Virus genome (UHGV): UHGV-0033546
DNA from: a virus
Strand: one strand, 5' to 3'
Length of the DNA: 64,000 nucleotides
This document shows positions 3,003 through 33,109 of the stretch, piece after piece. The notes beneath the pieces are model-generated. The model was not told the DNA's origin. It ran no database searches and saw nothing but the letters and a program-made list of their open reading frames with translations. A program made the position numbers and the translations under genes. How positions within the stretch are numbered: the first letter of the stretch is position 1; every line of letters starts with the position of its first letter.

Positions 3003-4176
3003 TAAATTCTTCCATATCACTTAACTGATCTAGGTCAGTTTCTAAATCAGCTGCTGATTTACTTTTACTTTCTGGAGATTTAAATTTTTCAACCTTTGAG
3101 TTAATCAATTCATCAACTTCAGCTTCAACAATTTCATTACTATCAATAGCACCTAATTGATAAGCACGTTTAATAGCATCTCGGAATGGCTGATGCTTAA
3201 ATAAAGGACCCCAGAATGTAGTGCAGTTGGTATCTTTTGCACGCCAAGATTTTTCTTCGCGAATCATCTCGCCGGTTTCTTCGTCAAGAAATTCACGAGC
3301 ATACCAGCCATTTTTTGGTTTTACCACAAATCCTAATTCAAGAGCCATATCTAACAATCCAGAATAAGGATCGATACCACCGTCAAATTTAACATCAATA
3401 AAGAATTTACTTTTTTCTTTAACAGTACGAGATTTTTCTACATTTAGAACAAATTGATACCCCTGAAGATCAGAACCATCTTTAATCTGGCGCTTACCGA
3501 TAATGAATACAGTATCAGCCGAATACATTACGCCTGTACCACCTGTCATCACGGTTTTACTAAACATTTCAATTGTTTCAATTGTATGGTTAACCGCAAC
3601 ACATGGAATATTTTTAATGCTAAAATAAGGAGTAACAATACGGAATAATGACTTCAGCGATTTAGCACGAGTCATATCTGCCACAGATTTTTCATTCAAG
3701 GCATCTTCCGTTTCTTTCTTAGAAGCCATATTACCGATTGAGTCGATGAATACAATAACCTTTTCACCACGCTCAATAGCTTCAAGCTGATTCACCATAT
3801 CAATTTTCAGCTGTTCAACTGACTGGATTGGCGTATGAATTACTCGTTCCGGGTCAACACCCATGGATCGCAAATAAGCTGGAGTAATACCAAATTCGCT
3901 ATCATAAAATAGACAAACCGCGTCAGGATATTTGTTCAAATACGCCGCAACCATAGTCAAAGACATATTTGATTTAAAGTGTTTAGAAGGACCTGCAAAA
4001 ATGGTTAAACCAGACTGCATACCACCATCAATCGCACCAGAAATAGCGATATTAAGCATTGGGATTTTTGTGCGAATTACATCCTTTTCATTAAAGAATT
4101 TAGATGTAGTCAGTTCAGCAGTCATTTTAGAAGTGGAAGCTTTAATCAAACGGGATTTTAAATCTGCAATAGACAT
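2995..4176 (-). CDS. uvsX: UvsX RecA-like recombinase, 393 aa
   Basis: RecA fold with Walker A GPSKHFKS; near-identical to T4 UvsX N-terminus and C-terminal acidic tail as recalled. Confidence 0.95.
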   Translation of the reverse strand: MSIADLKSRLIKASTSKMTAELTTSKFFNEKDVIRTKIPMLNIAISGAIDGGMQSGLTIFAGPSKHFKSNMSLTMVAAYLNKYPDAVCLFYDSEFGITPAYLRSMGVDPERVIHTPIQSVEQLKIDMVNQLEAIERGEKVIVFIDSIGNMASKKETEDALNEKSVADMTRAKSLKSLFRIVTPYFSIKNIPCVAVNHTIETIEMFSKTVMTGGTGVMYSADTVFIIGKRQIKDGSDLQGYQFVLNVEKSRTVKEKSKFFIDVKFDGGIDPYSGLLDMALELGFVVKPKNGWYAREFLDEETGEMIREEKSWRAKDTNCTTFWGPLFKHQPFRDAIKRAYQLGAIDSNEIVEAEVDELINSKVEKFKSPESKSKSAADLETDLDQLSDMEEFNE

Positions 4177-4229
4177 TCATTTTTTCCATAGGCATCATTA
4201 TATTTTCCTCACTGGTTAAAGATAGAGTA

Positions 4230-4253
4230 ATTATAACACAATAAATTTAGGCA
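4230..4253 (-). promoter_or_regulatory. candidate MotA-dependent middle promoter for uvsX (MotA-box-like TGCCTAA at 4253-4247, -10 TATAAT at 4235-4230)
   Basis: Minus-strand reading of the uvsX upstream intergenic region; box is one mismatch from the TGCTT consensus; spacing about 12 nt. Confidence 0.3.
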
Positions 4254-5096
4254 TTAATCAACTGCTATTGGATGAATAGCATTAAACTTATGAAATGCTT
4301 CTGATTTTTCTTTACGCGAAACACACATACGAAGAACCTTTAATGGCTCGTCTTCTTCACCCAACGATTTTCGTTTTTCAATATTAGAAGTTTTCCAACG
4401 AGCTTGCTCTGGAAACTCTCTATTGATTTGCTCAAGAGCTCTATTATGTTTTGAATTACTACGAATTGAACTACACCCACCAGGAGCTTGTGCTTTTCCA
4501 GATACAACTAGATATTTGAACAAGGCCAAATGCGGATAACCTTGATTAATTAAATTGAGAAATGCATACATATCTTCGCATAAATCAATTTTTCCATACC
4601 CAATTTGTTCTGTGGTAAGTTTTCCTAAATCATACCATGTATTTGTGAATCCATATGAATTTTCACGATAATTACCCCAAGATGAAGTAATTTTAAAAAT
4701 TGGTAGACGAGCATGGCCATGATAATACCCGCAATCCATGGCATCTTCAACGTATTGAATCAATTCATAGAACTGTTCACGAGTTAATTGATTAATTTTA
4801 TCTACGCAGCGACGATCATCTTTCTTTCGCATTGAACTCATACGAATAGTAGTATCATCATCAATCATCCAAATTCGTTGACCTGCATACATATCAGTAA
4901 TTGCTTTACGAGTACCAGCAATTCCGTTAACATCATCAGGAATAGTTATAATTTTAGCTCTAGACCCGTAAGCGTCATAATAAGCTTTTTCTTCATGTTT
5001 ACGCACTACAATATGGGGTTCATAATCAGTCGGAAACATATCAAGGGCAGAAACTGCCCCGACACGCTGATAACTTGGAATTACGAATTGAATCAT
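4254..5096 (-). CDS. GT-A fold glycosyltransferase, 280 aa, at the locus occupied by beta-gt in T4 (possibly a beta-glucosyl-HMC-alpha-glucosyltransferase type enzyme)
   Basis: N-terminal FVIPSYQRVG strand and DDD (DxD) motif typical of GT-A enzymes; ATG at 5096 in ATGA overlap with gene 42 stop; 280 aa versus 351-aa T4 beta-gt and not alignable to it by eye. Confidence 0.55.
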   Translation of the reverse strand: MIQFVIPSYQRVGAVSALDMFPTDYEPHIVVRKHEEKAYYDAYGSRAKIITIPDDVNGIAGTRKAITDMYAGQRIWMIDDDTTIRMSSMRKKDDRRCVDKINQLTREQFYELIQYVEDAMDCGYYHGHARLPIFKITSSWGNYRENSYGFTNTWYDLGKLTTEQIGYGKIDLCEDMYAFLNLINQGYPHLALFKYLVVSGKAQAPGGCSSIRSNSKHNRALEQINREFPEQARWKTSNIEKRKSLGEEDEPLKVLRMCVSRKEKSEAFHKFNAIHPIAVD

Positions 5097-5833
5097 TTCC
5101 ACTCACCATTATAATCTTTTTTCGCAATATGAGTTTCGCCAGTATTCCACCAATGGTCAACCAAATAAAACTGATTTTCGTACACATGAAGACTTCCGAC
5201 ATTCCATATAATAGAACCTGCTTTATACTGTCGTGATGGGTCGCCTGCATTCAAATCAGATACTAATTTATCTAGTACGTATTTTTGCCACGCATAATCA
5301 TTACGATAGCCTGCCCAGCAGTCATTGCTTCTCATATTAACAACTGCATTGACTTTCTTATCACGAATCAGGTACTGTACTGTATTAGTACACATGAAAT
5401 CTGACATGCCGTCTTTGTTGTAGTCAAACTGCATAGATGGACGAGTATAAATCATGATACCACGCCGAGAATCAGGATTTTGACCAAGTTCAGCTAAACA
5501 CATATCATACTGGGCATAGTTATTTTCTGACCAGATAGCCCAACCATAATTCGAGTTAATTTCGCCTTTAGAAGATGCTACCTGCTGCCAAATCTTTGGT
5601 GTTTCACCTGGAATATCTTTAACAAACAAGCTCTTAGATTTATACCATTCAAGTTCACGCTGAATGTATTCATCATTAAGAGCGCCAAAAATAAACGGTT
5701 CATCTGCTACAAATGATGCGCCAATAATTTCAATAGTTTTAACACCAGTTTTATCAACTACGAAATCTTTTTCCTTTAATGCAAGCCCCAAATGAAGACG
5801 GATTTCTTCAACTGTCATAGAGTCACTAATCAT
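5093..5833 (-). CDS. 42: gp42 dCMP hydroxymethylase, 246 aa
   Basis: 246 aa; sequence from MISDSMTVEEIRLHLGLALKEKDF onward matches T4 gp42 as recalled. Confidence 0.92.
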   Translation of the reverse strand: MISDSMTVEEIRLHLGLALKEKDFVVDKTGVKTIEIIGASFVADEPFIFGALNDEYIQRELEWYKSKSLFVKDIPGETPKIWQQVASSKGEINSNYGWAIWSENNYAQYDMCLAELGQNPDSRRGIMIYTRPSMQFDYNKDGMSDFMCTNTVQYLIRDKKVNAVVNMRSNDCWAGYRNDYAWQKYVLDKLVSDLNAGDPSRQYKAGSIIWNVGSLHVYENQFYLVDHWWNTGETHIAKKDYNGEWK

Positions 5834-11507: not shown

Positions 11508-11529
11508 ATAAAGGGCCGAAGCCCTTTAT
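11508..11529 (-). terminator. hairpin with UUCG tetraloop between 45 stop and 44 SD
   Basis: + strand ATAAAGGGC-CGAA-GCCCTTTAT; followed on transcript by UUUAUAAUUU. Confidence 0.45.
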
Positions 11530-12215
11530 TAAAAATCATGGGTAGAATCAGCTTCAAGAGCTACTACATAATTCGCGTGTTCACCTTCAAATTTAGCAGC
11601 ACCTTGTTTACCTTTTGCCCAGAGCAGAAGTTTATAATTTCCTGGTTGCATTTTCATATTTGCCATATTGATAATGAAATTAAATGTATTTTCACCATCA
11701 TAATCACCAAGATTCAAAGAATATTTAACACGGGTCAGAGCAGAATCTTCTACTTTATTAAAACCGTTAATTACGATTTTACCTTCTTTTACCGTGATAG
11801 CAATTGTATCAATTTGCAGACCACGAGATACACGCAACAGTTGTTGAAGGTCTTCAGCTTTAATTTCAGTAACAACAGATGCTACCGGGAATGGAATTGG
11901 TTTATTAGGAGCAACTACTGTACTCGGATCGGCTGCTGGCCAAAAAATTGTTGAACGAGCATCAGCAATTTTAATATTTCCATCTTCTGATTGGGAAATT
12001 TCTGCATCATCATTAACTAGGGACAGAATACCGAGAAAACCGTTCAAATCGTAAATTGCTACATCAAAATCAATAGTGTCAGAAATATTTGCTTCCGCAT
12101 AAGTTGTACCATTAACTGCGCGAGTCATAATAAATTGACCAGATTTAAGCATAATACCGGAGTTAATAGTAGCGAAATTTTTCAAAATATTCAGTGTGTC
12201 TTTAGATAATTTCAT
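11529..12215 (-). CDS. 45: gp45 sliding clamp, 228 aa
   Basis: 228 aa; sequence matches T4 gp45 as recalled; ATGA overlap with upstream endonuclease-like ORF. Confidence 0.9.
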   Translation of the reverse strand: MKLSKDTLNILKNFATINSGIMLKSGQFIMTRAVNGTTYAEANISDTIDFDVAIYDLNGFLGILSLVNDDAEISQSEDGNIKIADARSTIFWPAADPSTVVAPNKPIPFPVASVVTEIKAEDLQQLLRVSRGLQIDTIAITVKEGKIVINGFNKVEDSALTRVKYSLNLGDYDGENTFNFIINMANMKMQPGNYKLLLWAKGKQGAAKFEGEHANYVVALEADSTHDF

Positions 12216-13099
12216 TTCAATTTCCTATTTACATAATAGTTAGACCAGGACCGTACAGCACCCTGATAAGATTCGTCGTTAAACCCATTAGCTACTGCAA
12301 TTTTACGAAATTTATTATAACTCGGTTTTCCGTAAGCATGCCATAAAGATTTTAATTCATCTTCATGTTCAATCCAAGTTCCTCTAGCTTTAGATTTTCT
12401 AAATTTTGATTTGAATTCCGGTGAATTATTTCTAACAGTTGCTTGAATTGAAGCTCTCTGTCTTCTTTCAGCATTATTCCATAACTCTTTTTGAGATTTA
12501 GAAATTTTTGATTTTACACTTTCTGAATTCATTATATCACTAAACTTTTTAGCATAACTGCAATCAAGATATTTCAATTTCATCTTATTTGAAAGTTTAA
12601 GCTTTTTCTCATCGGTCCAGTGATTCTTCATTGAATTAGATATTTTGTATTTTACGTCAGAACTATGTTTGTAACCTTTACGAATACCAACATAATCGGG
12701 CGTAATTTCAGATTGCGAAAGCTTTACAATTTTTCCAGTTAAAACATTTTTATATGTTCCATATCCTTTAGCGCCAATTAAAGTATTTTCATCTGCGTAT
12801 GCTTTATTAAAATATTTTATATTACTTTTTGCTTTAACTTTTAATTGAAAAAATCTTTCCAATTTTCTTGGATCTAATATAGTTTCAGCTAAAATTTTGA
12901 CGGTATATTTAGTGGTTTTAATAAGCTCAAAATATTCATCGCTATAACTCGATGACACGCTTCCAGTATAAATCTTTCCAGCTGAATCAATTATATTTGT
13001 TCCATCGAAAATTGCGTCAATTTTCGAACCTATATAATAACATGGAAAAATATTTTTAGCTTCCCGCTCTGGAAAGCTAATAAGATATACTAAATTCAT
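12212..13099 (-). CDS. free-standing homing-endonuclease-like protein (degenerate GIY-YIG-like N-terminus plus C-terminal DNA-binding module), 295 aa
   Basis: N-terminal VYLIS...(12 aa)...YYIGS resembles the GIY-X10-12-YIG spacing but lacks an obvious catalytic Arg; C-terminal 110 aa homologous to the C-terminus of the HNH ORF at 15437-16291; ATGA overlaps with rpbA stop and 45 start. Confidence 0.5.
12212..13099 (-). mobile_element. putative homing-endonuclease gene insertion between rpbA and 45
   Basis: Endonuclease-like ORF wedged between two conserved replication/transcription genes with precise translational coupling. Confidence 0.4.
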
Positions 13100-13485
13100 T
13101 TATTAAAATCAGCCGCAATTGTTTCTGCAACAATTTGAGCAGCGACAATTAGACGTTCATCTGCATTACCACAATAATCATCTTCAAGGCGTTCACCACA
13201 TGAAGTCATAATAAATTTAGCACCGGCGTTTAAAGATTCTGTCGTATGTTTGCGCATTAGTTCAATCCATTTATTACTTACTTCACGATCGATAGCTTCA
13301 TAATACGCATAACGAGCAGGTGCAGATTTAATTTTATCCTGAATAATTTCCATTGCGTTTTCAGAAAGAGACAAAACCCATGCTCGACGAATTTTATTTT
13401 GGTTTTGTGGATTTGAATCAGAACGCACGTGTTTTGGCTGAATATCTTTTACATCAACAGTATAATTCACAGTAATTTTAGTCAT
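13096..13485 (-). CDS. rpbA: RpbA RNA polymerase-binding protein, 129 aa
   Basis: 129 aa, position upstream of 45, sequence consistent with T4 RpbA. Confidence 0.7.
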
Positions 13486-13738: not shown

Positions 13739-15421
13739 TTAAACCATTACAGTAAATCGACCAACTTTCTTCATCTGAAGATGCTGACCATATTCTTGCG
13801 GGTCATGGTCTTTATGTGAAATTATAAAAACATTAGTGTTTTTCATTGAATTTATAATATTAGCTACACCTTTAATACCTTCAGCATCAAATGACCCGTC
13901 AAACACTTCATCGAGTATTAATGTACTAATACTAACACCAGATACAATAGAAGCAATATCACGCCAAGTAAATAAAAGAGCAATATCAATTCGCGCTTTT
14001 TCACCTTCACTAAATGAAGCATAACTAAAATCTTCACGACCACGGGATTTAATTGTTTCATTAAATTCTTCATCTAATGTAAACACATAATCCGCTTCCA
14101 TTATTTTAAGATAATGGTTAATCTGCTTATTAAATAATGGAATGTACTTTTTAATAATAGCACCTTTAATACCAGAATCTTTGAGCATATCAGTCAAAAT
14201 TCCTCTGTGGTATTTTTCCATTACTAAATTAGTTTTTGTTTTAACAATTTTATCAAGTTCTTCTTGAAGCAGTGCTATTTCATCAGCATGGTCAATAAAC
14301 TCGGATGATGCTTTTTCGATAGCCGCTTTAACTTTTTTAGCTTTATCTACTGTGGTGATTAAAGACTGCTTTTTATTGCGAATATCATTTGCCAACGTCT
14401 GTTGGGTTTTAATATTATCTCGGTATTCATCAACGAGAACTTTTAAATTATCACGATGTGTTGAAAGCTGTTCAAACGAATGTGTGCATTCAGAAACTTT
14501 ATCTTTAATTTTAGAAACAACTTTATCACCGGAACTTAATTGTGACAAACAGGTTGGACATAATCCACCTTCGTGATACATATTAATGACTTTATTATAC
14601 GAGTCAATTTTTGATTTAATTAAAAATGCTTCTTGACCGATTTTATTAAATGCATCAGTCGGGTCTTCATCCAAAACAATATTAACTAATCTTTCATTAG
14701 CTTCTTCTATTTCCGATTTTAGTGTTCTAGCTTCTTTTGCCAAATCATCATACATATTCTGTAGACGAGTAAGATTATCACCAGTTAATTTTTTCTGGCG
14801 TTCAACATTATCGTTATATATTTTAATTTGTTGGATAATACTGTCTTTTTTAACATCAAGCACTTGGTTCTGCGAATTTAATTCACGTATTAGTGCTTTA
14901 TTAAGCTTATCCATTTCAGCTAATGTTCCTACCTCAAGCAGGTCTTCCACAAGCTTTCTTCGCGCAGGGGTCGACAAACCCATGAAAGGGGTATACCCTG
15001 CTGTACCAAGGACAACAATCTGCTTGAAACTGGCATATGACATTCCGATAAGCTGTTCAAATTCTGCTTGGAAATCTTTACTGCTGGCAGATTCATTAAG
15101 ACGTGTACCGTTAACGGTGATTTCGAAAACGTTTGGTTTTTGTCCTCTTTTGATATAGTACTTTTTCTCATCATATTCCATCCACAATTCAACTAAAAGT
15201 TCTTTCTTATTTGTGCTGTTTATTAATTGGCCTTTCTTTACATCACGAAATGGCTTGCCAAAAAGCCCAAATGTGATGGCTTCTAACATAGTAGACTTAC
15301 CACCGCCATTTCGTCCAGTAATAAGAGTTTTTTGAACCTTATCTAATTGAATGTCAACTCCATTTTGACCAACTGACATTATATTTTTATATTTTACTCT
15401 ATTAAGTTTAAATGATTTCAT
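13739..15421 (-). CDS. 46: gp46 recombination endonuclease subunit (Rad50/SbcC-like ATPase), 560 aa
   Basis: Walker A GRNGGGKST, long coiled coil with CPTC zinc hook, C-terminal signature and Walker B; 560 aa as in T4. Confidence 0.9.
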   Translation of the reverse strand: MKSFKLNRVKYKNIMSVGQNGVDIQLDKVQKTLITGRNGGGKSTMLEAITFGLFGKPFRDVKKGQLINSTNKKELLVELWMEYDEKKYYIKRGQKPNVFEITVNGTRLNESASSKDFQAEFEQLIGMSYASFKQIVVLGTAGYTPFMGLSTPARRKLVEDLLEVGTLAEMDKLNKALIRELNSQNQVLDVKKDSIIQQIKIYNDNVERQKKLTGDNLTRLQNMYDDLAKEARTLKSEIEEANERLVNIVLDEDPTDAFNKIGQEAFLIKSKIDSYNKVINMYHEGGLCPTCLSQLSSGDKVVSKIKDKVSECTHSFEQLSTHRDNLKVLVDEYRDNIKTQQTLANDIRNKKQSLITTVDKAKKVKAAIEKASSEFIDHADEIALLQEELDKIVKTKTNLVMEKYHRGILTDMLKDSGIKGAIIKKYIPLFNKQINHYLKIMEADYVFTLDEEFNETIKSRGREDFSYASFSEGEKARIDIALLFTWRDIASIVSGVSISTLILDEVFDGSFDAEGIKGVANIINSMKNTNVFIISHKDHDPQEYGQHLQMKKVGRFTVMV

Positions 15422-15436
15422 TTTGTATCCAATTGT

Positions 15437-16291
15437 TCACAATGAAGAAAATTCTTTAACTAAAGCCTGTAATGAAGCCTCTATTGGATATCCATTCTTA
15501 ACTAACATTTTCCTAAACATCACATGTTTAGGACGATTATATGATATCCACAATTCATACAATTTATCTTTATTATCCCAATGATAGCCTTTTCGTCGAG
15601 ATGCTATATGAGCTTTTCTAATCTCCGGATTTTTCCAACTAGCAGCTACTGAATTTAATATAGCTATTTTATATTCAGGTTTTGATAAAGCAGCACGAAC
15701 AGCCTTTTGGTGTTTAATTTTATTTTCTTCGTTATTAAACCATTCCCTTGAAGCCATTGAAATTTTTTGTTTTGTTTTAAAATTATTTAATCTTTCTTTG
15801 TTATCTTTCCTATTTTTTGCTACTGAAAAATATTTTAATGCCCTTTCTCTAGCAACATTTCTATTTTGTGGATTTGAATAATACTGTTGAAGCCTTTTTG
15901 ATATTGTGTCACTTACATCCTGTCTTATAAAACTATATTCAGCAGCTATTAAATCAACTTCGGCTAAAGATAAATTTTTATATGTTTTTCCTGACATCAT
16001 TCTATTTAAAGCATTTAGCATTTTTCCATTTTTACCTTTTGCTAATAAGAAATGTGCTTTGAAATGATTAAAATGACTTAAATTAACTAAATTCCATGTA
16101 GATTTTAAATATTCAGGAAATATTGATTTAGGAAGCACGTGGTGTGCTTCCGTTTTACCTGGAGTTTTAACAGTTGAATTCATAGAAATAAAATTAATAT
16201 AAGACTTGGCGTCTTCTTCACTCAACGCTAATTTTTCAACTAATTCCTTTATTAAAAATTCATCATTAATATCAAGTTTAAAATTCTTCAC
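15437..16291 (-). CDS. HNH homing endonuclease (mob-like), 284 aa
   Basis: HNH signature AHHVLPKS...WNLVNLS...HFNHFKAH near N-terminus; basic repeat-rich C-terminus; GTG start at 16291 overlapping upstream stop. Confidence 0.65.
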   Translation of the reverse strand: MKNFKLDINDEFLIKELVEKLALSEEDAKSYINFISMNSTVKTPGKTEAHHVLPKSIFPEYLKSTWNLVNLSHFNHFKAHFLLAKGKNGKMLNALNRMMSGKTYKNLSLAEVDLIAAEYSFIRQDVSDTISKRLQQYYSNPQNRNVARERALKYFSVAKNRKDNKERLNNFKTKQKISMASREWFNNEENKIKHQKAVRAALSKPEYKIAILNSVAASWKNPEIRKAHIASRRKGYHWDNKDKLYELWISYNRPKHVMFRKMLVKNGYPIEASLQALVKEFSSL

Positions 16292-17932: not shown

Positions 17933-19133
17933 ATTTTGTAATAATGTCAAACTGTTCTTTAAAGCAGAAGCTTGAATCTTGATGCTGATACAAAAATTCA
18001 TAAGCTTTTTCTCGCTCACGGTCATAAAGAGCTCGGTCAGATGACAGTTCTTTAATACGCTCGAATGTCGATTCCATGTCATTTTCGTCAAACCAAACGA
18101 TACCGCTATCATGAGAAATTAACGGAGTATTATCAACACGGAATTTTAAATTTTCGCCAGTAGATTTCCAAAATACCGGAATTGTTCCACACGCTCCAAG
18201 CTCGAGATGAGTATATTCTAAAGAACGTTGTAGATATTTTTTGTCCAACTTACTCAACTGATAACCAAAACCGGATTTACTCATGCGTTCAAGCATTTCG
18301 CTATTTACATAACGATCAAGAATTTGCGTTGGCAAATTAGGAGCAATTTTAATTTGGTCTACTTGATGAAGACGATAATACTCGTATGGAATTCCTTTTT
18401 CTTTAATAGGAATGAACGCTGGAGAACGTTCCAGACCTTCCATAATAGTACTTAGCCCAGCAGGTTTAAGATGTTTTTCGTGGAAATCAAACATCTGATA
18501 AAAACCTTTCCATGTAGTCGTACGACCAATCCAACGATTGACATTCATGTTAATTTTAGAAACATCTTTCCAGTAGGTTGATCGAACCTTCGCAATATCC
18601 ATAGGAGGCTGAAAGTTGTATACAGTCGGTGCTTCTTCAATATCATCAAACAGAGAAACCGTTTCTGGATACCATTCTTTCATCAAAACTTTATTAAAAT
18701 CGCCATTATCAGAATGACTAAAAATAACATCAGCTCGACGAACAGTTTCTTCTAATCCCAAATTTCGACGCAAAGAAAGAGAAGAATGGTCATGTTGATA
18801 AACTACAACACGAACCGAAGGTTTAATGTTATCAATAATTTTTTTATAGTTATTAATAGTGTCTTCTTCGACTGAAGTAGCAGGAACTGAATTGATAATT
18901 AGAATATCACAATCATTTACCAGCTTAAGCGTTTTATCATATTCTTTTGCCAATAAAACCGGAATTGAAAATGATTTATAATCATGTGCGCAATTACGAG
19001 TAAATGATTTATCTTTAGCATAAACCAAAGTTACTTCATGACCATTTTTAATAAACCAATCACGTTGCTCGAGAGAAAATTTAGTTACACCACAACCTTC
19101 AAGACCCCGAGCCATAAAAATACATACTTTCAT
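17931..19133 (-). CDS. a-gt: alpha-glucosyltransferase (DNA hmC alpha-glucosylation), 400 aa
   Basis: 400 aa; sequence close to T4 alpha-gt as recalled. Confidence 0.9.
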   Translation of the reverse strand: MKVCIFMARGLEGCGVTKFSLEQRDWFIKNGHEVTLVYAKDKSFTRNCAHDYKSFSIPVLLAKEYDKTLKLVNDCDILIINSVPATSVEEDTINNYKKIIDNIKPSVRVVVYQHDHSSLSLRRNLGLEETVRRADVIFSHSDNGDFNKVLMKEWYPETVSLFDDIEEAPTVYNFQPPMDIAKVRSTYWKDVSKINMNVNRWIGRTTTWKGFYQMFDFHEKHLKPAGLSTIMEGLERSPAFIPIKEKGIPYEYYRLHQVDQIKIAPNLPTQILDRYVNSEMLERMSKSGFGYQLSKLDKKYLQRSLEYTHLELGACGTIPVFWKSTGENLKFRVDNTPLISHDSGIVWFDENDMESTFERIKELSSDRALYDREREKAYEFLYQHQDSSFCFKEQFDIITK

Positions 19134-19183
19134 TTAATATCCTCATTGTTTTGGTTTATTTTACCAAAAATTTATAAAGCAAT

Positions 19184-20627: not shown

Positions 20628-20705
20628 TTTCACCTCTTAGCTCAATTCATAGATCTATTATATCATAATATTTGAAGATCTATCTTAAAGCATAGAGGAT
20701 ATCAG

Positions 20706-20975
20706 TTATCTAAGTAAACAGTATGCTTGGAACACTTTCTCCATCATCTTTTTAAATTCATGAATATCTATGTAATGACTAGTTAAATCAGCATGATATA
20801 AAAAGTCTAAAAACTTTTCATGTGTGCTAACATATTCACTTTCATTTAATTCAGAAACATGACTTTCCCAATATCCAACACCAGTCTTATTTGGGAAAAA
20901 TGAAATTTTCATGTATTGATCAACATAGAAAATGCCATAATTTTCAATAGTAATAGAAATATTAATAAATTTCAT
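20706..20975 (-). CDS. hypothetical protein, 89 aa
   Basis: Track ORF in small-gene block between nrdH-like and 55. Confidence 0.4.
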   Translation of the reverse strand: MKFINISITIENYGIFYVDQYMKISFFPNKTGVGYWESHVSELNESEYVSTHEKFLDFLYHADLTSHYIDIHEFKKMMEKVFQAYCLLR

Positions 20976-22529: not shown

Positions 22530-22853
22530 TTAATCTTCTATGATATCTCTATCATATCCAAGTGAAATGAGAGTTTCTTTGAAGTGTTTAATGTTCTTTT
22601 GTCTAGAATCATTAATGAAAATGACTGGATACCGAATGTTAAGAGATGTAAATCCAGCACGTTTAGCAAGAGATACAATCAGTGGACGATCATACTCAAT
22701 CTTACCATTATTTGTAAGAACTTTATAGAAAGTAAAAGGAGCATTGAGCTCCTTTAGAAGTTTTGTAACTGATTGACATCCAGGACAACGACCTACTTCA
22801 TCTGGAATTCCATAGACTTCAATCTTATTCTTTAAGTTCGAGTTTTGTTCCAC
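22530..22853 (-). CDS. NrdH-like glutaredoxin/thioredoxin-fold redoxin (CPGC active site)
   Basis: CxxC motif GRCPGC in a redoxin-length domain; no in-frame ATG, proposed GTG start at 22853 with AAGGA SD; track ORF extends to 22982. Confidence 0.5.
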   Translation of the reverse strand: MEQNSNLKNKIEVYGIPDEVGRCPGCQSVTKLLKELNAPFTFYKVLTNNGKIEYDRPLIVSLAKRAGFTSLNIRYPVIFINDSRQKNIKHFKETLISLGYDRDIIED

Positions 22854-23136
22854 GAGAAATAATTCCTTGATAAGCCCAATAAGGAGGATTAACAGAATCC
22901 TCACCAGAGTTTTCTTCAGGAAAATAAACTTGGATAACAAATCCAGATGCGTCAAAGGTAAAATAAACTGTAGGCAGTTCACCTAACAATTCGGCACGAG
23001 CATTAATTTCTTCAAGATCGGATTCACGCCCAGCCCAAAAACTAGGATTTAGACTACATTCGTAGAAATAATAGTCATTACCGAACATATCAAAACCATT
23101 CCAGCTTTCCACCACATAACGTTCAAAACTAATCAT
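22825..23136 (-). CDS. hypothetical protein, 103 aa
   Basis: Track ORF. Confidence 0.45.
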   Translation of the reverse strand: MISFERYVVESWNGFDMFGNDYYFYECSLNPSFWAGRESDLEEINARAELLGELPTVYFTFDASGFVIQVYFPEENSGEDSVNPPYWAYQGIISRGTKLELKE

Positions 23137-23138
23137 AA

Positions 23139-23354
23139 TTAATCCTTTTTATCAAGAACAGCATTCAGCTTGTTAGTAATTTTATCCAGACGCTCATTGA
23201 ACTCGCTAGAAGACAGTCCTTTTTCTGGAGAAATCAAACTAATTACGAAAAATATAACAATAAAAGGAATAAGGAAAATAGCTCCAACTGCCATAAACAA
23301 AAAGAATGTTACAGTTGTAAGAAAATCAGCTAAACCTTTACGAAATTTATACAT
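23139..23354 (-). CDS. small membrane protein, 71 aa
   Basis: Single long hydrophobic helix FLTTVTFFLFMAVGAIFLIPFIVIFFVISLI. Confidence 0.45.
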   Translation of the reverse strand: MYKFRKGLADFLTTVTFFLFMAVGAIFLIPFIVIFFVISLISPEKGLSSSEFNERLDKITNKLNAVLDKKD

Positions 23355-23469: not shown

Positions 23470-23940
23470 TTAATCATGTTTCCACACCCCATTGGTATTT
23501 GACCAAAGCCGCTGATTATCTGATCCTCGCCACAGCTTTTTGGTCGGAAGATTTTTCTCATACTTCCCATCAATAATAACATCAACATATTTAAGCATTT
23601 CTAGTTGTTTAATATCTTCAAACTTATATCCTGTCCACAACCAAATGCTTTTATTTGGATAAAGATTTTTGATAGTTTGAACCACAGAGTGAATTACATC
23701 TCTATTATCAGGATAAAGAGGGTCACCTCCGGTTATAGTTAATCCTTCTATATAATCGTTATTCAAGCATTCAATTAATTGTTCCAGTGTTTCACCAGTG
23801 AATGGAATACCATTTCTAGCATTCCATGTTGATTTATTATAACACCCTTCGCATTTATGCAAACAACCTGTAACGAAAAGAACGGTCCTGCACCCAGGAC
23901 CATTAATAAAATCGCAAGGATAAATTCTATCGTAATTCAT
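23470..23940 (-). CDS. nrdG: NrdG anaerobic ribonucleotide reductase activase (radical SAM), 156 aa
   Basis: Cys cluster CLHKCEGC, 156 aa, ATGA-coupled to nrdD. Confidence 0.9.
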   Translation of the reverse strand: MNYDRIYPCDFINGPGCRTVLFVTGCLHKCEGCYNKSTWNARNGIPFTGETLEQLIECLNNDYIEGLTITGGDPLYPDNRDVIHSVVQTIKNLYPNKSIWLWTGYKFEDIKQLEMLKYVDVIIDGKYEKNLPTKKLWRGSDNQRLWSNTNGVWKHD

Positions 23941-25754
23941 TGATGCTTAACCCTATGCATGATTTCTTTATTTTTACCGAGATTAAATCCGCGTTCGTTC
24001 GGGTTTCCCAAATATCCGCATGTTCTTCTTATGGTATTCATCTTTTTAGGATCAGTTTCTCCACAAATAGAACAAACAAATCCGGTTTCAGTAGGAGTCA
24101 TTTCATGGGTACTTCCACATGTAAAACATTTATCTACTGGCATGTTAACACCAAAATAATCTAAATGTTGTGCAGCATAATCCCATACAGCCTCAAGACC
24201 TTTTAAGTTATTTTTCATATCAGGAAGTTCAACATAAGAAATGTGACCACCTGTTGCAATGAAATGATATGGTGCTTCACGAGAAATCTTTTCAAACGGG
24301 GTGATATTTTCTTCTACTGAAACGTGGAAACTGTTAGTGTACCAGCCTTTATCAGTAACATCCTTTACACTTCCATATTTTTCGGTATCAAGTTTACAGA
24401 AGCGATAACAAAGGTTTTCAGCGGGTGTAGAATACAAGCTAAAAGCAAAACCGGTTCTTTCAGTCCACTGCTTAAGATGAGCATTCATTTTAGTTAAAAT
24501 TTCCTGTCCAATATCACGACCAACAAGAATATTCAATTCATGAATACCAATGTATCCTAGAGACACTGAACTTCTGCCGTTTTTAAATAACTCAATTATA
24601 TCGTCATCAGGTTTAAGACGAACCCCGAATGCACCTTCTTGATAAAGAATAGGAGCAACAGTCGCTTTAACTCCTTTTAAGGAACTAATTCTACACATCA
24701 AAGCTTCAAAACACAAATCCATTCGCTCATTGAATAATTCAACAAATTTCTGTTCATTGAACTGTGTTCCAATATAAGAATCTAACGCAATGCGAGGAAG
24801 ATTCAGTGTTACAACACCAAGATTATTACGTCCATCAAGAATTTCATTACCAGTCGAATCTTTCCATACGCTCAAGAAACTACGGCAACCCATTGGAGAA
24901 ACAGGAACAGATGAACCAGTGATAGCTTTATTGTTCTTAGCTGAAATAATATCAGGATACATCCTTTTGCTTGCACACTCTAGAGCAAGCAGTTTAATAT
25001 CATAGTTCGGGTCGTCTTTATAAAGATTAACACCTTCTTCAACGAACATAACAAGCTTAGGGAAAATAGGAGTTATCCCATCACGACCAAGACCTTTAAT
25101 GCGATTTTTCAGAATTGCTTTCTGAATCATTCGTTCAGTCCAGTCAGTTCCCGTACCAAATGTAATTGTTACAAAAGGCGTTTGTCCGTTTGAACTAAAG
25201 AGAGTATTTACTTCATATTCATAAGCTTGGAATGCATCGTATACGTCTTTTTCTGTTTTAGATTGAGCATAATTTAACGCATCAGCGATTTGCCATTTTT
25301 CTGCATCCTCAATATGTTTTGCATAGGTGCGTTTAACATAAGGAGAAAGTACTTTATCTACATTCGCAAAAGTCGTTCCGCCATATTGGTGAGAAGCAAC
25401 CTGTGCAGTAATTTGTGCCATAATTGCAGTAGCAACGCCAATTGATTTAGGAGTTTCAATCTGTGCATTACCAAGCTTAAATCCGTTCTCAAGCATTCCT
25501 TTTAAATCTACTAAACAGCAATTAGTAAATGGAAGAGCAGGGGAATAATCAATATCGTGGAAATGAATAATTCCGCTTTCATGCGCTTTCATAATAAAAG
25601 ACGGGACCATATTTTTGGCAATGTGTTTAGACACAATACCAGCCATAAGGTCCCGTTGAGTTGGAAAAACACGAGAATCTTTATTAGCATTCTCGTTTAA
25701 AAGGTCTTTATTAGTTTTATGAATTAATCCTTCAATTTCTTTTTCAATTGTCAT
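23937..25754 (-). CDS. nrdD: NrdD anaerobic ribonucleoside-triphosphate reductase, 605 aa, uninterrupted
   Basis: Glycyl-radical C-terminus RRTCGYLG and Zn-ribbon CFTCG...CSICG; continuous 605-aa frame. Confidence 0.95.
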   Translation of the reverse strand: MTIEKEIEGLIHKTNKDLLNENANKDSRVFPTQRDLMAGIVSKHIAKNMVPSFIMKAHESGIIHFHDIDYSPALPFTNCCLVDLKGMLENGFKLGNAQIETPKSIGVATAIMAQITAQVASHQYGGTTFANVDKVLSPYVKRTYAKHIEDAEKWQIADALNYAQSKTEKDVYDAFQAYEYEVNTLFSSNGQTPFVTITFGTGTDWTERMIQKAILKNRIKGLGRDGITPIFPKLVMFVEEGVNLYKDDPNYDIKLLALECASKRMYPDIISAKNNKAITGSSVPVSPMGCRSFLSVWKDSTGNEILDGRNNLGVVTLNLPRIALDSYIGTQFNEQKFVELFNERMDLCFEALMCRISSLKGVKATVAPILYQEGAFGVRLKPDDDIIELFKNGRSSVSLGYIGIHELNILVGRDIGQEILTKMNAHLKQWTERTGFAFSLYSTPAENLCYRFCKLDTEKYGSVKDVTDKGWYTNSFHVSVEENITPFEKISREAPYHFIATGGHISYVELPDMKNNLKGLEAVWDYAAQHLDYFGVNMPVDKCFTCGSTHEMTPTETGFVCSICGETDPKKMNTIRRTCGYLGNPNERGFNLGKNKEIMHRVKHQ

Positions 25755-31761: not shown

Positions 31762-32111
31762 CAGTCGACCATAAAGATCATAGCCTTTATTATAATTACG
31801 AAGGATTTCACTCGCGTTAATACGAGACAATGCTCCAATTTATTAAGGGCTTTCATAATGCGATTAGATAAACCCATTCCAGACCCATTTGTTCGCTGCA
31901 AATGTTTTTCTAATCCAAATCCAATATCAACTTTAAACTTATCTAAAATTTCTGCATGAACATCTCTGTCAATAACATTCAAATCCAAAGTTGGGTTAAA
32001 TCTATGAAAAAATTTATCTGGCTCTCCACGACGAAGTACAGTCCATTCATTCAATTTTTTATTAACTAAAGATTTAATTACTGCATTGACATTATTAATC
32101 ACTACTGGCAT
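31761..32111 (-). CDS. hypothetical protein, about 116 aa
   Basis: Track ORF 31761..32147; internal ATG at 32111 avoids overlap. Confidence 0.4.
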   Translation of the reverse strand: MPVVINNVNAVIKSLVNKKLNEWTVLRRGEPDKFFHRFNPTLDLNVIDRDVHAEILDKFKVDIGFGLEKHLQRTNGSGMGLSNRIMKALNKLEHCLVLTRVKSFVIIIKAMIFMVD

Positions 32112-32118
32112 ATTTTCC

Positions 32119-32526
32119 TCACTCAATTTCAATTTTACTAAATACATAGAATATGATTGAACAGACTACATAAGCGCCACACACAGATTGAACTAATACC
32201 ATTCCAAAGAACCAAACAATATTATCAAACAGTGTCTGTTTTACGTCGAAAGGACGTAAACTTACAGTAATATTATCGCCTTTTTCTATTGATGAATACA
32301 TCTCTGGTGAAATATATTCGCTAAATCTATAACCGTCTTTTAGTTCATATATGGCAATAAACGATAAACTAGACCCCTTTCCTTGTGTTCCTGTAATGGT
32401 ATTAACTACAGTAACATCATAATCTTTATAATGCATATAATCATTAATAGCATAATAACCATATGCAATCGCTATACATAAACAACATATCAATAAATTC
32501 AATCTTTTAATTATCAACTGTTTCAT
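32119..32526 (-). CDS. membrane protein, 135 aa
   Basis: N-terminal and C-terminal transmembrane helices. Confidence 0.45.
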   Translation of the reverse strand: MKQLIIKRLNLLICCLCIAIAYGYYAINDYMHYKDYDVTVVNTITGTQGKGSSLSFIAIYELKDGYRFSEYISPEMYSSIEKGDNITVSLRPFDVKQTLFDNIVWFFGMVLVQSVCGAYVVCSIIFYVFSKIEIE

Positions 32527-32581
32527 AATAATCTCAATTAAAAGGGCTTAGAACCATTATACCATCCTTGGTATAAAGCGG

Positions 32582-33109
32582 TTATGCGAGTACCGTCTTT
32601 AACCGTTCTTCAAACTTCCGAAGAGTATTTTGGCGTTCAGCTCTTTGCTTTTTGTAAGTTTCAATACGCTCTGAAATGAGAGTGTATCGTTCATTTACTG
32701 ATTCTTTCATAAAATCAGGAATTTCACGAGAAGCTTTAATCTCGTCAAATTTATCAATAACAGCTTGCTCTTCAGCAATTAAATTATCATACATTAAAAT
32801 ATCTTTCTTGATGAACTCAATATCTTCTTGAGTTACACGAGATAATTTAGATGCTTTATCCTTTTTGTACTGTTCGTTAGTATCACGAGACCAGTGTAAT
32901 GTACGATTTTTATTCGTATTTTTGTAAATTTCTACAATACCAATCTCATCAATAATAACGATCCAATTCCAACGTGATTTGTAAATTTGTCCTCCATCAA
33001 CAGTGATTTCACCTCCGATTGAGATGTCATTAAAGAACTTGCTTTGTGCTTCAGATTTAAATTTACCATCATTGTAATTTACCAAGTTGAAAATATCTTT
33101 AGCGTTCAT
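32582..33109 (-). CDS. hypothetical protein, 175 aa
   Basis: Track ORF with early promoter upstream. Confidence 0.5.
   Translation of the reverse strand: MNAKDIFNLVNYNDGKFKSEAQSKFFNDISIGGEITVDGGQIYKSRWNWIVIIDEIGIVEIYKNTNKNRTLHWSRDTNEQYKKDKASKLSRVTQEDIEFIKKDILMYDNLIAEEQAVIDKFDEIKASREIPDFMKESVNERYTLISERIETYKKQRAERQNTLRKFEERLKTVLA

Follow-up and report, generated by a model that had tools for sequence, protein, structure and literature searches.

The stretch of DNA analyzed here (the window) comprises 64,000 nt of the virus genome UHGV-0033546. It represents a T4-like genome (Tequatrovirus), in which the minus strand encodes the early and middle genes. The subject of the analysis was ORF295 (12212..13099, minus strand), an open reading frame (ORF) of 295 codons running from ATG to TGA. 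It is flanked upstream by rpbA (13096..13485, minus; Pfam Phage_RpbA, 9e-41) and downstream by gene 45, the sliding-clamp gene (11529..12215, minus; gp45-slide_C, 6e-52). The order of transcription through the region is 47, 46.2, 46.1, an HNH ORF, 46, 45.2, rpbA, ORF295, 45, 44, 62, regA, and 43. The results presented below make it quite probable that ORF295 is a free-standing homing endonuclease gene of the GIY-YIG Seg type (SegG-like), i.e. a selfish mobile element, and that it is intact and recently mobile.

A preliminary description of this DNA, which left the strand unstated, had placed ATGA overlaps at both ends of ORF295. Both were present on the minus strand: the rpbA stop (TGA) overlaps the ORF295 start (ATG) at 13099-13096, and the ORF295 stop (TGA) overlaps the gene 45 start (ATG) at 12215-12212. 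Four-nucleotide overlaps of the ATGA type were found in 18 of the 102 same-strand neighboring ORF pairs of the window; the double coupling is genuine but, given this frequency, unremarkable. The intact orthologue in phage TH15 has an equivalent GTGA overlap, with a GTG start on the rpbA stop.

The same description had named no T4 gene at this position, and there is none. In T4, nothing but a 55-bp spacer (32604-32658) lies between rpbA (32659-33048) and gene 45 (31917-32603). Alignment to T4 and to the ORF-free phage DalCa revealed that ORF295 is a clean, exact replacement of this spacer, the window-specific insertion covering ca. 12227-13101. Within the last rpbA codons, homology to the ORF-free phages ends after GATTTTAAT; it restarts at GGAAAT. 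The latter has its homologue in the ribosome-binding site native to gene 45 of T4 and is now encoded by the final codons (N-R-K) of ORF295; the gene 45 Shine-Dalgarno (SD) sequence of this phage, AGGAAA (12226-12221, minus), lies inside the 3' end of the ORF (12212..12226). The protein ending, N-R-K-x-K followed by the stop codon, and AATAGGAAA were kept in all three orthologue groups. The last codon and stop of rpbA read AAA TGA in this phage vs. CGT TAA in ORF-free phages. Comparison of rpbA-45 junctions among related phages, which had been proposed as a check, located the insertion in ca. 25 records and the spacer in T4, DalCa, and LH2. An endonuclease at rpbA/45 is missing from the list in the T4 mobile-element review, and no paper describing one at this site was found in a literature search.

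Domain architecture and catalytic residues

The N-terminal GIY-YIG-like spacing noted in the preliminary description is present (MNLVYLIS...CYYIGSK). It belongs to a nuclease domain (residues 1-105; 12785..13099, minus) marked by Y5 (of GIY), Y22-I-G (YIG), K26, K42-x-Y44-x-G-S47, E81, and Y-F-N98. The beta-beta-alpha-beta-alpha catalytic fold of the GIY-YIG superfamily was recovered with high confidence. An exhaustive HMMER search yielded at least 327 related clusters (at 50% identity), and across 152 representatives Y5, Y22, G24, K26, Y44, S47, E81, and N98 were invariant or nearly so. The tyrosine pair of the superfamily (V4-Y5-L6 and Y22-I23-G24) was invariant in these representatives and aligned with Y6 and Y17 of I-TevI; likewise, the invariant N98 of Y-F-N aligned with I-TevI N90. 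The metal-binding glutamate is represented by E81, which was found in 151 of the 152 and is the sole invariant acidic residue of the second helix. MAFFT placed E81 on I-TevI E73, two residues off E75, and the E75 column is variable (Lys in active SegG); the equivalence of E81 to E75 is therefore argued from its invariance. The closest characterized relative of the domain is SegG (T4 gene 32.1, between genes 59 and 32), with 38.8% identity over residues 1-102 of ORF295 (tblastn) and the common motifs VY...YYIGSK...GK-x-Y...E...YFN.

The nuclease domain is followed by NUMOD3-like helices (residues 146-235; 12395..12664, minus), which were located by a motif scan on the helices of the AlphaFold2 (AF2) model. 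Three clear copies of S-x3-K-x-K-[IL]-S-x3-K occur at residues 146, 162, and 192, along with two degenerate NUMOD3-like helices. Pfam NUMOD3 was sub-threshold in the ORF295 protein (E = 0.65) and matched 74 of 99 family members. When the family profile was run against PDB sequences in HMMER, I-TevI's DNA-binding domain was matched (1i3j, 5.5e-4) in its NUMOD3 part only, and the catalytic domain was not. The last ca. 60 residues form three helices that resemble the C-termini of SegA (8e-5) and SegF (1e-3). This putative DNA-binding domain (residues 240-289; 12233..12382, minus) is common to T4 SegA, T4 SegF, and a Mob-like HNH ORF elsewhere in the window (15437-16291), to which residues 93-286 are homologous (27% identity, E 2e-12). 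The modular architecture is that of a Seg protein: an N-terminal GIY-YIG domain is joined to a NUMOD-type DNA-binding region, and the gene is a free-standing, co-oriented ORF that is situated between conserved genes and patchy among close relatives.

A profile search for a GIY-YIG fold, also proposed beforehand, gave a divided result. The N-terminal profile aligned to T4 SegA (93% probability), and PHROG 655 (“homing endonuclease”) was matched at 3e-32. Searches of the ORF295 protein in Pfam and NCBIfam returned nothing significant, and the gathering score of Pfam PF01541 was not reached; hhalign against I-TevI gave no match, and no relatives emerged when the viral contigs of IMG/VR were scanned with the ORF295 protein. 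As a control, known endonucleases were treated in the same manner. SegA and I-TevI matched Pfam, but the active enzymes SegG and SegF had zero Pfam matches at E ≤ 0.1, and SegG had no NCBIfam match either. Because active enzymes also go unmatched, the Pfam failure says nothing about decay.

The preliminary description had remarked on the lack of an obvious catalytic arginine, and none was found at the canonical distance (about 10 residues) after YIG. In the joint alignment, R27-W-K-R-H31 of I-TevI falls on A40-G-K42-I-Y44, and the canonical arginine of helix alpha1 is thus replaced by A40. In addition, the ORF295 clade has a 3-residue insertion of its own (YSD, residues 52-54, before the helix), and at positions 49 and 51 it is devoid of the Lys/Arg residues found in many relatives. 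Taken with the empty Pfam and NCBIfam searches, these features weigh against an active homing endonuclease. They favor a domesticated or catalytically dead derivative that would bind DNA without cutting it and that would be kept for the promoter and ribosome-binding site of gene 45, or as a transcription regulator in the way that I-TevI acts at its own operator. The comparative data nevertheless render such a derivative unlikely. In the same columns, SegG has S-G-K-E-Y and I-TevII has N-W-K-E-Y, and SegA and SegF are also without the arginine; Table 1 of PMC2988022 gives all four as active. The commonest state in the family (75 of 152) is the absence of a basic residue at position 40 combined with Lys/Arg at position 42. 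Furthermore, Y5, Y22, E81, and N98 are strictly kept.

A substitute for the arginine may be present. Residues 43-44 lie in a strand in the AF2 model, and K42 and Y44 are predicted to point to one side, like R27 and H31 on the helix of I-TevI. From its position two residues before the invariant Y44, K42 is a candidate for this role; R12 (conserved in 120 of 152) and K26 (151 of 152) are alternative candidates.

Distribution, selection, and allele sharing

The flanks of ORF295 matched 641 phage records, 504 of them at 95-99% identity, and the ORF was present in ca. 25 (about 5% of the close Tequatrovirus records). Orthologues at the same site were identified in Mosigvirus AV118 (60% identity) and Gaprivervirus TH15 (56%), so that a frame of 292-296 residues is conserved in three genera. 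Comparison with AV118 gave nonsynonymous and synonymous proportions (pN and pS) of 0.29 and 0.68, respectively (omega ca. 0.21); for the nuclease domain alone, they were 0.25 and 0.75. The omega values of neighboring genes were 0.09-0.5. Among six intact close copies, 20 synonymous and 12 nonsynonymous variable sites were counted (omega ca. 0.15). The notion that AT-rich spacer DNA merely happens to be open in this frame draws on the low G+C content of ORF295 (29.4% vs. 35% in the flanks) and on nothing else. It is refuted, and its probability is negligible: the frame is maintained across three genera, at 55-60% identity and an omega near 0.2, the fold is of high confidence, and there are 327 homologous clusters.

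ORF295 alleles were found to be shared between diverged genomes. The window and G10400 differ at one position in the 884 nt of the ORF, whereas 24.8 differences were expected from the 1.7-3.3% divergence of the flanking kilobases (P = 4e-10). Phages SHBML and EC121 have no differences in the ORF vs. 20 expected, and three further pairs behave alike: near-identical ORFs (0-2 differences per 884 nt) reside in backbones that are 1-3.5% diverged, with P ranging from 6e-5 to 4e-10 over the pairs. The tract of low divergence ends ca. 15 nt upstream and ca. 55 nt downstream of ORF295.

The combination of purifying selection, evident also in the nuclease domain by itself, and near-identical ORFs in diverged backbones argues for recent mobility and ongoing spread as opposed to decay or domestication. 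A domesticated derivative is also difficult to reconcile with the dispensability of the gene, which is absent from ca. 95% of close relatives and frameshifted in several. The preliminary description's suggestion of an endonuclease has held with respect to the GIY-YIG assignment, which is upheld by the identity to SegG, the invariant residues, and the fold. Its qualifier “degenerate or domesticated” finds no support, given the Arg-less motif of active SegG and I-TevII, the selection on the gene, and the allele sharing.

The allele sharing is consistent with homing and does not prove it. In principle, it could arise without a nuclease because T-even phages recombine very freely, a consideration that must be set against the homing endonuclease reading. 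ORF295 might then be a passive passenger, spread by general T-even recombination or mobilized in trans (e.g. by the nearby Mob-like HNH gene) with no involvement of its own nuclease. T4-like genomes are mosaic, the second endonuclease gene is 2.3 kb away, and trans-homing is documented for mobE and I-TevIII (PMC2790892). However, the low-divergence tract is centered on ORF295 and ends within ca. 15-55 nt of it, as expected for conversion starting here; in a mere passenger, the nuclease domain would not be expected to stay under purifying selection; and the HNH gene is distributed differently and more widely (ca. 71 records, including T6). A passive role was accordingly considered very improbable.

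Copies in apparent decay were also encountered. In that of EC121, codon 18-19 is the site of a +1 C frameshift, the gene is in two fragments in Mosigvirus AV115, G2285, and FL18, and it is truncated to 249 residues in AV111; sequencing errors are possible in all of these cases. Invasion, purifying selection during spread, and sporadic decay together make up the life cycle that a homing endonuclease gene is expected to have; cleavage is the step predicted here from sequence. According to the homing endonuclease reading, the ORF295 protein would, in a mixed infection, bind and cut the rpbA-45 region of a related phage that lacks the ORF. Recombination-dependent repair, with the ORF-bearing genome as the template, would then carry the ORF, with short tracts on its flanks, over to the cut genome. 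If the target site lies in the spacer, ORF-bearing genomes would be immune, since they lack the spacer altogether.

Four differences in the last codon and stop of rpbA and three silent ones in codons 3 and 7 of gene 45 separate seven ORF-bearing loci from five ORF-free loci. The silent changes in gene 45 were considered as the mark of a target or immunity site. This candidate was rejected, and the observation counts as another point on the negative side, because the ORF-free phage LH2 (OQ378934) carries them: it has an intact T4-type spacer, yet its gene 45 has TTA at codon 3 and GAC at codon 7, variants that were otherwise seen only in the sampled ORF-bearing phages. LH2 may represent a donor-type background or a resistant allele, or the match may be coincidental.

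Loss of P45 and expression of gene 45

The start of the middle promoter P45 is given as T4 coordinate 32626 in a review of T4 transcription (PMC2988021). This position falls within the T4 spacer, where AATTGCTTTA, 12 nt, and TAAAAT conform to the MotA-box consensus and spacing (PMC2988021). The insertion therefore deleted P45, and this promoter is lost from the ORF295-bearing phage.

A candidate for an embedded middle promoter of gene 45 was located at 12341-12314 (minus). It consists of a MotA-box-like GCATGCTTAC, 12 nt, and TATAAT, lies within the 3' end of ORF295 at 123 nt before gene 45, and fits the published consensus and spacing (PMC2988021). At the same codons and with the same spacing, AV118 has ATTGCTTTA-12-TATATT, and TH15 has AATGCTTTA-12-TATATT; these two orthologues are 60% and 56% identical to ORF295, respectively. 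The strict MotA/-10 pattern had just five matches on the gene-sense strand of the 64 kb, one of which is at the expected position of the known promoter P45.2, and the embedded motif arose in 0.25% of nucleotide shuffles. When codons were resampled with the protein held fixed, the motif was regenerated in 36-44% of trials. Conservation of the motif is thus inseparable from conservation of the protein, and the view that the motif is statistically compelling was rejected, which detracts from this part of the case. By analogy with gene 32, the promoters of which lie inside segG (PMC2988022), the candidate probably restores middle transcription of gene 45. The displacement of P45, with the gene 45 SD sequence moved into the last codons of ORF295 and a promoter candidate embedded in the same ORF, is a circumstance that also suits a domesticated derivative.

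No SD sequence was found upstream of the ORF295 start. Termination-reinitiation from rpbA would probably give a low level of translation. Codons 7-15 contain a GC-containing hairpin of 10 bp, after which comes a T-run (AAAAATATTTTT; 13056..13080, minus). It is terminator-like and stable in this phage, but its z-score is just -1.9; it was not kept in AV118, and TH15 has a different hairpin at a similar place. Such a structure could attenuate read-through from rpbA into ORF295, although its significance is uncertain and no claim is made for it.

A more extended proposal is offered tentatively, and we regard it as possible and somewhat doubtful. It holds that the SegG-like clade is a structurally distinct GIY-YIG variant in which the alpha1 helix that bears the Arg and His of I-TevI has become a beta-hairpin, with K42/Y44 on a strand face replacing Arg-x3-His on a helix face, and that a promoter in its own coding sequence, in place of P45, would make ORF295 harder to delete.

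Related endonucleases and significance

ORF295 is an uncharacterized Seg member, with SegG as its nearest relative, and its insertion site, rpbA/45, is new. Like the ORF295 protein, SegG has no Arg in the column of I-TevI R27 and escapes Pfam, and its gene is likewise a promoter-less cassette before an essential replication gene whose promoters lie in the seg ORF (PMC2988022). SegG differs in its site (59/32), in its length (210 residues), and in its C-terminal half, which is unrelated and without NUMOD3-like repeats or a SegA/F-like end; it also has an Arg in a KQKR stretch at the helix start that the ORF295 protein lacks. The activity of SegG is proven, whereas that of the ORF295 protein is predicted. 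SegA and SegF follow the same plan as the ORF295 protein (a GIY-YIG domain, NUMOD3, and a C-terminal helical domain), but they are without its ca. 18-residue beta-hairpin between YIG and G-Y-x-GS, and their genes occupy other sites (uvsX/beta-gt and 56/soc, respectively). I-TevI, the td intron endonuclease and structural archetype, is intron-encoded, unlike ORF295. It has a zinc finger, of which there is none in the ORF295 protein, and its alpha1 helix (R27, H31) corresponds to the beta-hairpin (K42, Y44) of the latter.

The Mob-like HNH ORF (15437-16291, minus; 284 residues) is situated between genes 46 and 46.1. It is absent from T4, relative to which it is also a clean insertion (15413-16269), and it shows 98% identity to its copies in phage T6 and the other records (ca. 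71) and 30% to T4 MobD, a distant relative. Its catalytic domain is HNH instead of GIY-YIG. Because its C-terminal two-thirds is homologous to residues 93-286 of the ORF295 protein (PHROG 655 is also common to the two), two different nuclease domains share one DNA-binding module. With respect to T4, this phage is without mobB, mobC, and the nrdD intron with its I-TevII (window 19125-19148, 23920-23940, and 25216-25219), and a 282-residue ORF (4254-5102) is found where T4 has segA and beta-gt (window 4165-5110). Because of these absences and this replacement, the set of mobile endonucleases is largely non-overlapping with that of T4. Two further segments, 20700-20961 (ca. 260 bp) and 22829-23154 (ca. 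325 bp), had no counterpart in T4 1-50000.

Public records name the ORF295 protein “hypothetical”, “putative 24.6 kDa protein”, or, automatically, “homing endonuclease”. Current understanding of homing endonucleases is unchanged by ORF295. The gene provides a natural series of present, absent, and decaying states across three phage genera in which the homing life cycle can be studied, and it is probably another example of how a selfish gene can take over the signals by which an essential gene is expressed, in this instance that of the sliding clamp. The missing arginine and the missing Pfam match are traits of the whole SegG-like subclass, which matters for the annotation of phage “hypothetical proteins”; given at least 327 SegG-like clusters, many of these proteins are probably unrecognized GIY-YIG enzymes.
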